64,000 bases of DNA from an uncultured Gammaproteobacteria bacterium. Lineage in GTDB: Bacteria; Patescibacteriota; Microgenomatia; Daviesbacterales; UBA10151. The position numbers and the translations under genes were made by a program. The stretch lies in NCBI GenBank assembly GCA_964392925.1, contig CAYMRP010000004.1, forward strand, positions 71,184-135,183. The letters run 5' to 3'. The notes under the pieces were generated by a model. That model did not search any database, was not told where the DNA came from, and worked only from the letters and a program-made list of their open reading frames with translations. This document shows, piece by piece, positions 37,798-62,497 of this stretch. Positions within the stretch are counted from its first letter, which is position 1; every line of letters starts with the position of its first letter.

Positions 37798-37834
37798 TTG
37801 ACACTCTTTAGCACTCATGATATATTACTGCTAA
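37798..37834 (+). promoter_or_regulatory. lon promoter (TTGACA-17-TATATT) overlapped by a CIRCE-like inverted repeat
   Basis: TTGACA lies at 37798-37803 and TATATT at 37821-37826. TTAGCACTC-N9-TACTGCTAA lies at 37808-37834, against the CIRCE consensus TTAGCACTC-N9-GAGTGCTAA. The left arm matches 9 of 9 and the right arm 6 of 9. Confidence 0.55.
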
Positions 37835-37919: not shown

Positions 37920-40322
37920 ATGGATCCAATCTCTAACCCTATTAAACTAAGTAAAACTTTACCAGTAGGTCCTTTACGCGGCACTGTTATTTTCCCTGGC
38001 AACACAGTCCCAATCGTCTCCGCCCGTCCAAAATCACGCGCGGCCCTTGATGCTGCTTGGGCTACTAATCGTTTAGTAGTTTTCGTTGCCCAAAAGAATG
38101 AGCGCATCGATGATCCCAAAAAAGATGATTTATTCCAGGTAGGCACAGTTTGTTTAATCAAAAGAATTTTAAAAGTCGATAATGAATACCAACTTAGTGC
38201 CGAAGGCTTAACCCGTGTATTTATTAAAGGCTTCACCCAGACTGATAATTATTTAGAAGCTGAAATTGAAGAAATTCCTGAGCTATATGAGAGAAATGAA
38301 GAAACAGAAGCTTTAATTAGAACAGTTCGTGAGCAATTACGAAAATATCTGGAACTCAACGGAAATCCGTTATTTGATATGTCCTCACTTACAAACTGGC
38401 CGCTAATTTCCTCAAGCGATGATCCAAATCAGCTAGTTAATACAATTTGCCAAATGATCGAATTTAAAACAATCGATAAGCAGCAAATTTTAGAAATGGT
38501 TGCAGCCTCAGAAAGACTTCAAAGAGTCTCCGAATTACTCGCCAAAGAAATCAGAATTCTGGAAATTTCTCAAAAAATCTCTTCCCATACTCAGGAGAGA
38601 GTTTCCCGGATGACTAAAGAAGCTATTTTAAGAGAACAAATGCGCTCAATTGAAGAAGAGTTAGGTGAAGCTTCTGAAAATTCCGAAGTCCGCGAGTTTG
38701 AACTTAAGATCCGCAAAGCCAGCATGCCTAAAGAAGTTCGTGATAAAGCTAATAAAGAGCTTGGTCGTTTGGCAAAAATGTCCTCGTATAATCCTGAAGC
38801 TGCCTATATTAGAAATTACATTGAATGGTTAACTGATTTGCCTTGGAAAGGTGCACCCAAAACAAAAATCGATATGAAAAAAGCTGAAAAAGTTTTGGAT
38901 GCCGAGCATTACGGACTAAAAAAAGTTAAAGAGCGAATTATGGAATACCTAGCCGTTTATAAATTATCAGGCAAACTCCACGGCCCAATCTTATGTTTCG
39001 CTGGACCTCCGGGTACTGGAAAAACCTCAATCGGAAAATCAATCGCCAAAGCCTTAGGCCGAAAGTTTGTTAAAGTTTCTCTCGGTGGTATCAGAGACGA
39101 AGCTGAAATCAGAGGTCACAGAAGAACCTACGTTGGTTCTATGCCAGGACGCATGATCCAATCAGTCAAACAAGCTGGAACCTCAAATCCGGTCTTTATG
39201 TTAGACGAAATTGATAAAATCGGAGCCGATTACCGAGGTGATCCTTCAGCAGCCTTGCTTGAAGCGCTTGATCCTGAACAAAATCATTCCTTCTCAGATC
39301 ATTATTTAGAAGTGCCTTACGATTTGTCTAATGTTATGTTTATAACCACAGCAAACATGCTCGATACCATTCCTCCGGCACTGCGTGATCGTCTCGAAGT
39401 CATTACTTATCCAGGCTATACCAGAGATGAAAAATTTAATATCGCTAAGAACCATCTATTACCAAAAGTAATCGAGTCTCACGGACTAAAAAATTCTAAA
39501 ATCAAACTCGATTTTGATGAAAGCGCTATTTATCAGGTTATCGATGGCTACACTCGTGAAGCCGGAGTCAGAAGTTTAGAGCGGGAGCTCTCCGCAGTAA
39601 TTAGAAAAATCGCCAGAAAAATCGCTGAAGGCGAAATTAAATCTAGCTATCCGGTCACTGAAGAAGTTGTCAGAAAATTATTAGGTCCTGTTAAATTCTT
39701 GCCAGAGCTCGCTGAAATTGAAGATATGATCGGCGCTTCGACTGGCCTCGCTTGGAGTGAAGTTGGCGGATCAATTATGTTTATCGAGGTTACTTTAATG
39801 CCTGGTAAAGGTGCAATTCAATTAACAGGTCAATTAGGAGACGTTATGAAAGAATCAGCTCAAGCTGCAATGTCATATGTCCGTTCAAGTTGGGCAGCTC
39901 TAGGCTTAAATGAAAAATTCTTCCATAAAGTCGATGTTCACGTCCACGTTCCTGAAGGCGCAGTTCCTAAAGACGGTCCCTCTGCTGGAATCGCTTTAAC
40001 TACCGCTATTGTTTCAGCTTTTACTAAAATCCCTGTTAAAAAAGACATCGCCATGACCGGAGAAGTTACTTTAAGAGGTCGGGTTCTAGAAATCGGCGGC
40101 TTAAAAGAAAAAGTCCTCGCTGCCCACAGGGCTGGTGTTAAAGATATTATTATTCCTGAAAACAATAAAAAGGATTTGGAAGATATTCCAGAACATATTG
40201 TTGCTGATCTAAAATTCCACACAGTCAAGCATATGGACCAGGTACTGGAAATCGCTCTAATCAGAAATCCTTTTCCTAAAGCCAAGAAAATTCATTCAAC
40301 CCTTCCTCCAGCTTTTGCTTAA
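37920..40322 (+). CDS. lon: ATP-dependent Lon protease
   Basis: Has a Lon N-domain, Walker [10 protein letters not shown] and the protease Ser in PKDGPSAG. Confidence 0.93.
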
Positions 40323-56300: not shown

Positions 56301-56723
56301 ATGATAAAAACAGCCAGCGAAATAGTTGACCAACTTAGAACCGAAGGTCACCGTATCACCCCGATTAGAAATCGGATTCTCGATATTCTCTCCAAGAGCA
56401 CAGAGCCTATTTCGGCATTAGATTTAATAGCAGACTTTAAATCCTCAAATCTTAACGTTAACAAAACCACCATCTACCGGGAAATAGAATTTTTATTAGG
56501 CAAAAATCTTATTAATGAAGTTGAATTTGGAGATGGCAAAAAAAGATACGAGATGGATAATGGGCATCACCATCACTTAGTTTGCTTAAAGTGTGGCAAA
56601 GTTGAAGATGTTAGTTTGGAGACGGATTTATCATCGGAAGAAAAAAAGATAGAAAAAGAAACAGGTTTTAAAGTTGAATCTCATTCATTAGAATTTTTTG
56701 GAATTTGTAAAACCTGCCAATAG
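56301..56723 (+). CDS. Fur-family metalloregulator (Fur/Zur/PerR not distinguishable)
   Basis: Has a winged helix, HHHHLVCLKCGKV and a C-terminal CKTC. Confidence 0.8.
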   Translation: MIKTASEIVDQLRTEGHRITPIRNRILDILSKSTEPISALDLIADFKSSNLNVNKTTIYREIEFLLGKNLINEVEFGDGKKRYEMDNGHHHHLVCLKCGKVEDVSLETDLSSEEKKIEKETGFKVESHSLEFFGICKTCQ

Positions 56724-59817: not shown

Positions 59818-59864
59818 TTGACAAACGCCACAAAGTTGCATATACTTAATGCCACAAGGTTGCA
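59818..59864 (+). promoter_or_regulatory. Promoter TTGACA-17-TATACT flanked by two 14-bp direct repeats GCCACAA[A/G]GTTGCA
   Basis: TTGACA lies at 59818-59823 and TATACT at 59841-59846. The direct repeats lie at 59827-59840 and 59851-59864, 24 bp start to start, and the second ends 3 nt before the ATG. Confidence 0.6.
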
Positions 59865-59867
59865 ATT

Positions 59868-60857
59868 ATGGAAAGAAGAGAAGCCTCTAACGAACTAAAT
59901 AAATCACTAAACTCTGTTGGCTTAAGACTTGAAGGTGCCCCAAAAGTTATAATCCCTAAAACGCTTAGTGCTGAAATTCTGGCAGCAAAAGCCATCGCTA
60001 TGTCAGAAGACATGCAATATGGTTTTGATTTAGCAAATATAGTCACAGATCTCAGGCAATCTGCAATCAGAACCCTAAAAGACGGAAAGTCCTTTCCATT
60101 AGTACTGGATATACCAAACCTCGCAGATCCGAATTATGAACCTACTCCAGCTGATATTGCGCCTTCTTTGCTCGCCGCAAGTCTTGGAAGTTTTGCAATT
60201 GTCAGGATTGCTATGCCAAACTCAGATCACAGTATATCGCAGCTTTACGGAACAACTACACCCAGAACAAACATTGATGAGGGGGAACTGCAATTTACTT
60301 ACATCGGATTAAGAGTCTCGAGTAAGAGCGGTTATAAATGGGAGTCCCCCGCGCAAATAGATCCTTTAAGACCAGACCTGGTCTCTCCGGCCGATATGGA
60401 AACTTATTTATCAGGTGCAAATCAACTCGGCCTAGTTGGTGATCACGATAACTCAGGAATAAAAGTTTCAGATCCAAGACACTTAATAAATCTCCTCCAC
60501 GGCCTAGCAAATCCTGGACTTAGCGGACATTGGGCAGATGCACTTGAAAGTAATGGTCAAAGAAAACTTTTGACCGAAACATCAGCAAAAAGAATAATTG
60601 CCCCTAACGAGTTTGGCGACAGCTTGTATCAAGACCCCCTAAACACGACCCCTGTATTCACAATAGGTGCAGAGAGAATTCCCATGGCCATAGTTCTGGC
60701 CCCTGAACTTATGGAAGATATAGATTCTCTTGAAACCAGACGCAGTAATAAACCGGGAAGTCTTGAAACTTTGCAAGGAATGGCGCTCGCTGCACGTTTC
60801 GCGCAGAGATTAGGGGATAGCTTAGATCGGGCAATACCTAAAAGCGGAATGATTTAA
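59868..60857 (+). CDS. Hypothetical 329-aa soluble protein
   Basis: ORF with a strong promoter. No recognisable motif. Confidence 0.55.
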   Translation: MERREASNELNKSLNSVGLRLEGAPKVIIPKTLSAEILAAKAIAMSEDMQYGFDLANIVTDLRQSAIRTLKDGKSFPLVLDIPNLADPNYEPTPADIAPSLLAASLGSFAIVRIAMPNSDHSISQLYGTTTPRTNIDEGELQFTYIGLRVSSKSGYKWESPAQIDPLRPDLVSPADMETYLSGANQLGLVGDHDNSGIKVSDPRHLINLLHGLANPGLSGHWADALESNGQRKLLTETSAKRIIAPNEFGDSLYQDPLNTTPVFTIGAERIPMAIVLAPELMEDIDSLETRRSNKPGSLETLQGMALAARFAQRLGDSLDRAIPKSGMI

Positions 60858-60859
60858 CT

Positions 60860-61396
60860 ATGCTAGAGACAGCATCACCTAAAAAATTATTTGGAAAGAA
60901 AAAAATAGAATCTCAGGATATATCAACTCATTCTTTGGGAAACCCAATTCTAATAACAGAAACTCTCGACATTTTTAACCAAAGCCTGAGTGCCGAGATT
61001 ATAAAACAGGACCAGCAAATTACAGAGGTCCTTAAAAAAACATCAGATAACTTTATTAACTTCACAGGTCCTAAAGTTTTAGATTGGAATAAAAGTACTG
61101 GAAGAATAGCATTAGCAGAAAGTGTCATCAAAAATTCCGAAACCGAGTTTTTAGCATTCCGGCAAAGAATGACCGCTATGGCAGATGCTGATGGTTGCGG
61201 TGGTAAAAATGAAATTGCAAAATCTTCAGAGTCTGCTCTTTCTTCAAATGCGAATGTTATAGATTTTGGACAGGCGAAATTAAACAAAGCCTTAGGGATA
61301 AATAATAAACATACTCATAAATCAGGGGAACACGATCATTGTTCTCACGGCAATGATTACGGAGAATGCCCTAGCGGTTGTAAAAAAGCAGCCTAA
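60860..61396 (+). CDS. Hypothetical 178-aa protein with a His/Cys-rich C-terminal module
   Basis: Contains DGCGGKNE...VIDF...HTHKSGEHDHCSHGNDYGECPSGCKK, a layout like the tail of the 35601 ORF. The ATG lies 2 nt after the upstream stop. Confidence 0.55.
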   Translation: MLETASPKKLFGKKKIESQDISTHSLGNPILITETLDIFNQSLSAEIIKQDQQITEVLKKTSDNFINFTGPKVLDWNKSTGRIALAESVIKNSETEFLAFRQRMTAMADADGCGGKNEIAKSSESALSSNANVIDFGQAKLNKALGINNKHTHKSGEHDHCSHGNDYGECPSGCKKAA

Positions 61397-61417: not shown

Positions 61418-62497
61418 ATGAAAAAAATCCTAGCAGTACTTCTCCTTTTTCTTGCGTTACAAATATCTCCTGCTTTAGCTCAGGAAAACTTAGATCAGAC
61501 CATAAATTCCTCTGGGTATTCAACCCCGACCGATGAAATAAAACTTGAAGGTGTAGTTTTAGAAGATGGAAAAAAAGTCGAAGTGACCTCTCCTAACCGG
61601 CAGGGCGAAATTCTAAATACTGAGCAATCTTTTAATGCCCCTAATTCTCCGAGTTTTAAAAATGGTGATAAAGTAAAAGTTTCAATCTTTACGAATCCTG
61701 ATAACTCTCAGCAAATTTTCATTACTGATTTTATTAGAACCAGCCCGCTTTATTGGCTGTTCGGGTTATTTGTTTTGCTTGTTTTAATAATAGGAAAAAA
61801 ATCAGGACTCGGCTCGCTCGTCGGTATGGCTATATCTTTTGCAGTTCTATTCCTTTTTATTGTTCCCCAAATAACCGCCGGTCAAAATCCAATCTGGACT
61901 ACTTTAATTGGAGTATTATTTATTCTTCCTATAACTTTTTATCTATCCCACGGCATCAATAAAAAAACTACTATTGCTCTTGTTTCAACTTTTCTTTCTG
62001 TTTGTTTTACCAGTCTATTATCAATCTTCTTTATTAATACCGCCAAAATTTCCGGCTATGCTAGTGAACAGGCCGGCTTTATTCAAACTGCCAGAAGCGG
62101 AAGCTTCGATATTCAGGGATTATTATTTGCCGGAATTGTAATAAGCATAATTGGTATTCTGGATGATGTCACTATTTCTCAGGCCTCCATTGTTAATCAA
62201 CTGAAGATCGAACTACCAAAAGCTAAAGTGCTAGAGCTTTATAAAAAAGCTATGAATATTGGTCGCGATCATATTGGCTCTGTTGTAAATACGTTAATTC
62301 TTGTTTATGCCGGCGCATCCCTGCCGCTTTTAGTTTTATTCACAGACAGCAGTATTGGTTTTAACGAAGCGCTCAACAATGAAATAGTCGCCGAAGAAAT
62401 AGTAAAAACTCTGGTTGCCAGCATCGGACTTGTTCTATCAATTCCTTTGACCACAATTCTGGCTGCTTATTTTCTCAGTAATGACAAAGAAGCTTAA
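61418..62497 (+). CDS. YibE/F-family membrane protein
   Basis: Has a signal peptide, a soluble N-domain and a polytopic region with GILDDVTISQAS and MNIGRDHIGSVVNTL, as in the YibE/F family. Confidence 0.65.
   Translation: MKKILAVLLLFLALQISPALAQENLDQTINSSGYSTPTDEIKLEGVVLEDGKKVEVTSPNRQGEILNTEQSFNAPNSPSFKNGDKVKVSIFTNPDNSQQIFITDFIRTSPLYWLFGLFVLLVLIIGKKSGLGSLVGMAISFAVLFLFIVPQITAGQNPIWTTLIGVLFILPITFYLSHGINKKTTIALVSTFLSVCFTSLLSIFFINTAKISGYASEQAGFIQTARSGSFDIQGLLFAGIVISIIGILDDVTISQASIVNQLKIELPKAKVLELYKKAMNIGRDHIGSVVNTLILVYAGASLPLLVLFTDSSIGFNEALNNEIVAEEIVKTLVASIGLVLSIPLTTILAAYFLSNDKEA

Follow-up and report, generated by a model that had tools for sequence, protein, structure and literature searches.

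Zur regulons, as known from Bacillus subtilis, Streptomyces coelicolor and Mycobacterium, are governed by a Fur-family zinc repressor with palindromic boxes that lie over the promoters of zinc importer and zinc-starvation genes, with graded derepression of these targets. Another Fur-family operator, the Nur box of Streptomyces coelicolor, has been described as tTGCaa-N5-ttGCAA, a 6-5-6 motif (PMC2691836). The locus described here belongs to a 64-kb stretch of contig CAYMRP010000004.1, referred to in its entirety as the window. It consists of gene A (59868-60857, + strand, 329 amino acids (aa)) and gene B (60860-61396, + strand, 178 aa), preceded by a strong promoter that carries a pair of repeated boxes. 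It appears quite likely that A and B, together with the YibE/F gene that follows them, form a metal-repressed operon within a Fur-family regulon, most likely a zinc-responsive (Zur-like) one. The regulatory element, with two Fur-family operators placed on a consensus promoter, is of a well-understood kind. New aspects are the use of this box sequence here, how widely the regulon extends among bacteria of the candidate phyla radiation (CPR), and the presence of two unannotated families and YibE/F as its tightest targets.

The promoter is composed of the -35 hexamer TTGACA (59818-59823, + strand), which is invariant in all related loci, and the -10 hexamer TATACT (59841-59846, + strand), separated by a spacer of 17 nucleotides (nt). 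With 11 of 12 positions matched, the site (59818-59846) is the top promoter between 56 and 64 kb and one of three in the whole window to reach at least 11/12, in agreement with the strength ascribed to it in the initial annotation. The same annotation had described two 14-bp direct repeats, GCCACAAAGTTGCA at 59827-59840 and GCCACAAGGTTGCA at 59851-59864, spaced 24 bp from start to start, with 3 nt between the end of the second and the ATG at 59868. These positions were reproduced, as were the open reading frame (ORF) coordinates, the 2-nt gap between A and B and the C-terminal tail of B. The two copies stand as placed, but the unit is better described as a Fur-type box, with each 14-mer being the core of an imperfect 15-bp inverted repeat of consensus TGCAAc-N3-gTTGCA. 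The putative operator box 1, CGCCACAAAGTTGCA (59826-59840, + strand), reads CGCCAC-AAA-GTTGCA and has two mismatches to TGCAAC-N3-GTTGCA. The putative box 2, TGCCACAAGGTTGCA (59850-59864, + strand), reads TGCCAC-AAG-GTTGCA and has one. The resemblance to a direct repeat arises because the left half-site has the same variant, GCCAC, in both boxes.

The arrangement of the boxes is that of a repressor target. Box 1 fills the spacer between the hexamers and abuts the -10, and box 2 covers the predicted transcription start and nearly all of the short leader. The leader is 14-17 nt long, and no Shine–Dalgarno sequence is found in the region from the -10 to the start codon (59847-59867). Across the regulon, the distance from the -10 to the start codon is 21 nt in two-box promoters and just 6-13 nt in many one-box promoters (e.g., loci L018, L036 and L068). 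The short distances and the lack of a Shine–Dalgarno sequence therefore indicate that the mRNAs of the regulon are leaderless or very short-leadered.

The initial annotation had suggested a search for further sites, and this gave different answers at different scales. Inside the window, the 14-mer pair represents the only matches with fewer than three mismatches. At up to three mismatches, 8 matches were found against 7.8 expected, the six with three mismatches being at chance level. The 15-bp palindrome pattern likewise gave further sites at chance level only in the 64-kb window, with no second target visible. Outside these 64 kb, the motif recurs at a large number of loci and is kept in relatives, so the repeat is neither confined to this locus nor unconserved. 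When the upstream regions of seven close gene-A homologues (L001-L007, 62-87% protein identity) were aligned, the promoter and both boxes proved to be kept, and the DNA further upstream was not conserved. Box 1 of L007 is a perfect 7-1-7 palindrome, TGCAACA-T-TGTTGCA.

The layout is also found at greater distances. At 43% identity of protein A, L009 reads TTGACA-CTCGCAACTAAGTTGCA-TATAAT-ACA-TGCAATTGAGTTGCA-AGT-ATG, and at 29% identity L010 reads TTGACA-AACGCAAGCAAATTGCA-TATACT-AAA-TGCAAGTTAATTGCA-TTT-ATG. L011 (about 28-29% identity) has the layout of L010, and L008 (27% identity) has a single box, located in the spacer. Apart from the single-box L008, the promoter, both boxes and the spacing of 2 or 3 nt between box 2 and the ATG were seen upstream of every gene-A homologue examined, and they are likewise kept in L110, L022 and L129. 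This conservation, together with the occurrence of the same cassette upstream of Fur-family genes, supports the earlier proposal of a repressor operator pair.

For the wider survey, the promoter/box cassette was scanned as the pattern TTGACA-N3-GCNA-N5-TTGCATATAMT over 185,579 species genomes. At least 119 loci were found, against a rough chance estimate of a handful (fewer than about 10). The listed matches mostly bear Patescibacteria labels, with many assigned to Gottesman-, Levy-, Curtiss-, Shapiro- or Woesebacteria, to Microgenomates, to Saccharimonadales or to the “Patescibacteria group”. The positions left free in the pattern are strongly biased, and the consensus from 98 CPR-type cassettes is TTGACA-AA-TGCAA-cTnAg-TTGCA-TATAMT. 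All counts of cassette-linked genes given here and below refer to the matches listed. A Fur-family gene lies directly downstream of 58 of the approximately 98 CPR-type cassettes. The next gene after the regulator is a ZIP permease at 31 loci, all of them direct BLAST matches of the L063 protein, which itself matches Pfam ZIP with E=1e-47. At approximately 16 loci, the regulator is followed by ZnuA, an ABC ATPase and an ABC-3 permease (ZnuA/ZnuC/ZnuB). The ligand pattern His/His/His/Asp, which is that of zinc-type rather than Mn/Fe-type cluster A-I binding proteins, is present in 10 of 17 ZnuA-like proteins. Because the cassettes precede Fur-family, ZIP and ZnuA-type genes, the box is read as the predicted operator of an autoregulated Fur-family repressor with zinc importers as core targets.

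Not all promoters of the regulon are built alike. Of the 98 cassettes, 23 have a further box located 2-3 nt beyond the -10. It occurs in 15 of 58 regulator promoters and in neither of the two ZnuA-first promoters, and it is found at all A-B, sm49 and MinD/ParA-type (CooC-like) ATPase operons. The two-box design would suggest tighter control and a graded response in which effector genes are released last.

The analysis of gene neighbourhoods that the initial annotation had recommended linked A-B to Fur-family genes, ZnuABC and YibE/F. A Fur-family gene is found directly upstream of A-B in L009, and downstream of A-B and a small gene in L008 and L110. In L010, A and B are followed by a 54-aa gene (sm54), then by the Fur-family gene and the transporter genes for ZnuA, the ABC ATPase and the ABC-3 permease in this order, with exact TGCAA-N5-TTGCA boxes preceding A, the small genes and the regulator. 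The window contains a Fur-family metalloregulator gene of its own (56301-56723, + strand, 140 aa; Pfam FUR, E=7e-28), the product of which carries the motif HHHH-x2-CxxC plus a C-terminal CxxC. Regulators of the same subtype are preceded by the cassette in L122, L017, L085 and L047. Judged by its sequence and these associations, the 56301-56723 product is probably the repressor acting on both boxes.

The system shares with Zur regulons a regulator with these two motifs, 15-bp palindromic boxes located in the -35/-10 spacer and across the transcription start, and autoregulated regulator-importer operons (ZnuACB, ZIP) with extra members under tighter two-box control. It differs in its box, TGCAAc-N3-gTTGCA, as opposed to the AT-rich Zur and Fur boxes. 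It also differs in its members. Ribosomal protein paralogues, COG0523 and FolE2 were not seen, and A-B, YibE/F, small proteins and CooC-like ATPases are found instead.

The third gene of the locus encodes a YibE/F-family membrane protein (61418-62497, + strand), with a match to PF07907 of 242 bits against a gathering cut-off of 27 (E=8e-72). The gap between B and YibE/F is 21 nt, with no terminator predicted, and the order A-B-YibE/F is kept in L001, L002, L003, L005, L007 and L129. Elsewhere, YibE/F closes two importer operons, one of the regulator-ZIP type (L066) and one of the regulator-ZnuACB type (L051). The operon very probably runs on into YibE/F and so comprises three genes. The “orphan two-gene operon” of the initial annotation thus probably has one gene more, and it is rare rather than strictly orphan. 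Searches of the literature on YibE/F function returned no papers. A conserved two-hairpin RNA is seen upstream of YibE/F in L049, L109 and L123, approximately 75 nt after the cassette. It ends in a terminator-like stem and a T-run, has four pairs with compensatory changes (in three sequences only) and is without an Rfam match; Rfam searches of the window and the YibE/F leaders gave tRNAs only. This RNA might act as a small RNA under the control of the regulator, or as a leader that attenuates YibE/F expression.

Protein A has no match in Pfam, NCBIfam, PHROGs, PADLOC or PDB, and the same holds for protein B, in keeping with the earlier remark that neither resembles anything recognised. Both are considered to represent new families. 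A HMMER search with the family A profile retrieved just 20 cluster representatives among 1.84 billion proteins; the family is rare but real. A scan of species-representative genome contigs with a protein pattern for A gave no relatives, and A is therefore absent from nearly all species representatives. A word-index search with a deeper family A profile added P0024 only. Two further HMMER matches, P0023 and P0033, were rejected as spurious, being repetitive eukaryote-like proteins. Neither A nor B had matches among phage or plasmid records, and a mobile-element origin of A was dropped. The residues of A that are conserved in 20 sequences, with identities as low as 25%, are S182, Q186, H193, D202-P-R-H205, H221, D224, R232, S239 and Q303. 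The conserved set of three His and one Asp suggests a metal or catalytic site.

Protein B is mostly helical, with a DADGCGG motif and a His-rich C-terminal Cys/His knuckle. DADGCGG is invariant, with ACCP or ACHPH taking its place in distant members. The tail has the general form H-x-H-C-x2-C-G-x-D-x3-5-G-x-C-x2-C. The window protein ends in HTHKSGEHDHCSHGNDYGECPSGCKKAA, and its clade shows HDHCSHG...CPSGC (CxH...Cx3C). Similar tails are present in L008, L009, L010, L110, L129, L022 and L076. A B-like gene lies within a few nt of A in all of L008, L009, L010 and L011, and the A-B gap is -1 to 3 nt in eight of nine lineages. With the 2-nt gap in the window, B is predicted to be translationally coupled to A. 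Behind the same cassette in L024, L076 and L116, the first gene, which precedes the one for a B-like His/Cys protein, is not A but another of approximately 320-380 aa, and homology of family A to these first genes was not detected by hhalign. Since the first genes before B-like proteins vary in this way, B is the constant partner.

B may be taken as a cytoplasmic His/Cys-rich metal-binding protein. The possible metal link raised in the initial annotation finds support in this conserved tail, in the Fur-family regulator and in the zinc importers of the regulon. B resembles His/Cys metallochaperones and buffers (ZinT, the ZnuA His loop, COG0523 partners, and the tails of HypB, SlyD and UreE) in its His-rich stretch and CxxC...CxxC. 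It also resembles starvation-regulon metallochaperones in its placement under a putative metal-responsive repressor. B has, however, no sequence similarity to any of these proteins and no GTPase domain, and it is a helical cytoplasmic protein always paired and translationally coupled with a protein of approximately 320 aa. Many B proteins end in -KAA, -KKAA or -AAA (window 61385-61396; L009, L129, L022, L076), and the L010 small protein ends in -LAA. These Ala-Ala ends resemble ssrA-type ClpXP degradation signals and could reflect conditional proteolysis or coincidence.

The following mechanism is proposed. When metal is sufficient, the metallated regulator dimer, probably the 56301-56723 product, would bind the two 15-bp palindromic boxes. 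With box 1 between the hexamers and box 2 over the start and leader, RNA polymerase would be blocked at a near-consensus promoter. When metal is short, the boxes would be vacated and the operon strongly expressed. The two boxes would hold this operon more tightly than the regulator and importer genes, most of which have one box. B would act as a cytoplasmic His/Cys-rich metal binder made in step with A, which keeps its set of three His and one Asp. Together with YibE/F, the pair may form a metal-trafficking or metal-sparing module for starvation. That the signal is zinc is reasonably probable, and zinc is favoured by the linked importers; the regulator sequence itself is ambiguous.

A number of points weigh against this picture. 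The window's own regulator gene has no box upstream of it, and an importer gene was not found within the 64-kb window. The left half-sites of the window boxes (GCCAC) depart from the consensus, though the variant is conserved within the window clade. The structure prediction and remote homology searches advised in the initial annotation gave little: profile searches of PDB sequences with A and B returned noise only, and AlphaFold2 on shallow close-family alignments produced unusable models with pLDDT of 41 (A) and 53 (B). The anatomy of the locus, its conservation and the association of the box with Fur-family genes and with ZIP/ZnuABC importers are observed directly; DNA binding by the regulator is, like the mode of repression, the zinc signal, the metal binding of A and B and their biochemical role, something we infer from sequence.

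The regulator also departs from characterised Zur proteins. Their sensing-site Cys, which we take to be C79 of ScZur and C76 of MtZur (the ligand numbering of Zur, PerR and Nur is presumed throughout), is replaced by Glu (..KKRYEMDNGHHHH..; RYE, as in Fur). Glu is found at this position in all cassette-linked regulators. The 56301-56723 product scores 53 bits against the NCBIfam Zur equivalog, with a cut-off of 167, and lies far below all other NCBIfam equivalog cut-offs as well, those of Fur and PerR included. Its best partial NCBIfam matches are Bacillus Fur and clostridial PerR rather than Zur, and the nearest solved structures are Bacillus Fur, PerR, Campylobacter Fur and Nur, with Fur and PerR nearest.

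These features of the regulator would fit a rival explanation with the same architecture and a Fur-family repressor, in which the signal is iron, manganese or peroxide (Fur-, Mur- or PerR-like) and A-B-YibE/F serve in iron or redox stress. The neighbours of the window locus would also fit it. The regulator gene sits 8 nt after secA, and three genes follow it, up to 59718. The first encodes a small membrane protein, the second an ApbE flavin transferase and the third a 506-aa protein in which an RnfD/NqrB-like membrane domain is fused to an FNR-like NAD-binding domain. Beyond YibE/F, on the opposite strand, lie genes for a flavokinase and for an EamA transporter. The clade of L001-L007 shares these flavin-centred surroundings, and the regulator there heads a flavin-transfer/oxidoreductase cluster. 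ZIP and TroA-type transporters can also carry Fe or Mn. The cassette, as TTGACA-ATTGCAAAAATTTTGCA-TATAAT, precedes rubrerythrin, a PerR-like target, in four Aquificota genomes (L019, L023, L095, L099). The signal can therefore not be read from the box type alone, which is evidently common to Fur paralogues that respond to other signals; in Aquificota, the finding points to a PerR-like paralogue of Fur with this type of box.

On balance, an iron, manganese or peroxide signal is considered unlikely. The rubrerythrin cases come from another phylum and maybe concern another paralogue. The importers tied to the regulator are ZIP (the 31 loci noted above) and ZnuA types with a third-position His, not the Glu of Mn/Fe-specific ones. 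Downstream of CPR-type cassettes, no gene for FeoB, ferritin, Dps, catalase or AhpC was seen. The regulatory site of PerR, presumably H37, D85, H91, H93 and D104, is kept in part; two His and an Asp are present, H37 aligns to Pro/Glu and D85 to Glu. The 56301-56723 product is without the N-terminal His of PerR and Fur sites, which also belongs among the points against the Zur-like assignment.

A nickel signal was the second alternative, with a regulator like Streptomyces Nur, B as a His-tailed nickel chaperone, and A-B in the service of a nickel enzyme. The core of the box, TGCAA-N5-TTGCA, is identical to that of the published Nur box (PMC2691836) and has the same 6-5-6 arrangement. The two differ in that the centre here is partly palindromic too (cTnAg), which allows a 7-1-7 reading, and in the outermost bases, which are aTGCAA...TTGCAt. 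ScNur is among the nearest solved structures (E=1.6e-15), CooC-like ATPases of the MinD/ParA type are found under the cassette in L094 and L072, and His-rich tails are typical of nickel chaperones. However, of the nickel-site histidines of Nur, which we take to be H70, H72 and H126, the SHAH segment with H70 and H72 aligns to NEVE in the window protein (E-V-E at the site), and the Cys4 motifs are kept by the regulator. The linked transporters are ZnuA-type and ZIP, as opposed to NikABCDE or CbiMNQO, the targets are not nik and sodF, and no nickel enzyme is linked. Nickel is thus a very improbable signal. It is more improbable still that the promoter is simply strong and constitutive, with repeats that are due to chance or structure, and that A and B are ordinary lineage-specific proteins under no special regulation: the motif is not beyond chance elsewhere in the window, but the boxes are held in place at 27-43% identity of protein A while the surrounding upstream DNA is not alignable, the cassette matches lie far above the chance estimate with biased free positions, and the cassette is systematically tied to Fur-family genes.

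Returning to the zinc-responsive operon, a more far-reaching form of it may tentatively be put forward, although it is less likely than not. A-B would be a previously unrecognised, CPR-specific zinc-starvation module. B would found a new class of cytoplasmic His/Cys proteins, acting as a metallochaperone or as a metal buffer; less likely, it would be processed into a ribosomally made peptide that binds metal. A would be the client of B, a 3-His/Asp enzyme or a maturase, and YibE/F the membrane component, which would thereby gain its first functional context. As for the regulator, it would be a Zur able to sense zinc in the absence of the canonical Cys, with a Nur-type box as its target.

Further genes of the regulon lie outside the window. 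A lysine-rich protein of 44-63 aa (MKFYNVKTRQ.V...KV.VVTMKNGKKAAKAE.NG..LFKI.S.EDAARL) is usually encoded just before the regulator gene. It is found in L010 (5567-5731), L008 (3937-4071) and L009 (4453-4614), and also in L110, L094, L022, L030 and L053. It has no Pfam, NCBIfam or PDB match and is not present in the window; a PDB search with the 54-aa small protein gave nothing. A second full promoter/two-box cassette drives a small ORF in L010 (5310-5517), L030 and L053, the last with two copies. The product has 49 aa in both L010 and L030; that of L053 is longer, at 107-114 aa, and contains a HELLH (HExxH-like) motif. This protein may be metalloprotease-like and truncated in some genomes. 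The CooC-like P-loop ATPases of L094 and L072, of the MinD/ParA/CbiA type (GKGG[TA]GK[ST]T, C-x-S/H motif), are the first genes under a two-box promoter. In L094, the ATPase gene is followed by an SDR gene, a small protein and the regulator. These ATPases may be metallochaperones that fill the role COG0523 proteins have in classical Zur regulons.

Another of the three best promoters of the window, TTGACA-17-TATATT (37798-37834), lies upstream of an ORF (37920-40322) that encodes the Lon protease (Pfam Lon_C, E=1e-91). A CIRCE-like inverted repeat, TTAGCACTC-N9-TACTGCTAA, overlaps its -10 and suggests HrcA-type heat-shock control of lon. The A-B promoter shares its design with such CIRCE/HrcA promoters, both being consensus promoters in which the -10 contains or adjoins a palindromic operator, and differs from them in the regulator family and the signal. 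The cassette matches in Firmicutes were rejected as false positives, being CIRCE/HrcA promoters and unrelated.

Cassettes were also found in metagenome-assembled genome records titled “uncultured Gammaproteobacteria” (L014, L017, L022, L110, L129 and approximately 35 other loci, one of them on a 936-kb contig). The regulators, ZIP/Znu operons and A-B genes of these records are typical of Patescibacteria-labelled ones, and the “uncultured Gammaproteobacteria” labels look unreliable. Literature searches for Fur or Zur in Patescibacteria, or for the box sequence, returned no papers.

CPR bacteria have tiny genomes with few regulators, and metal handling in them is almost uncharted. One promoter/operator cassette at so many loci (119 or more) points to a widely conserved Fur-family regulon in these bacteria. 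The A and B families and YibE/F, a Pfam family of unknown function, are concrete candidates for new metal-trafficking proteins. If the proposal is true, the A-B promoter would also be a ready-made and very tight metal-switchable promoter.

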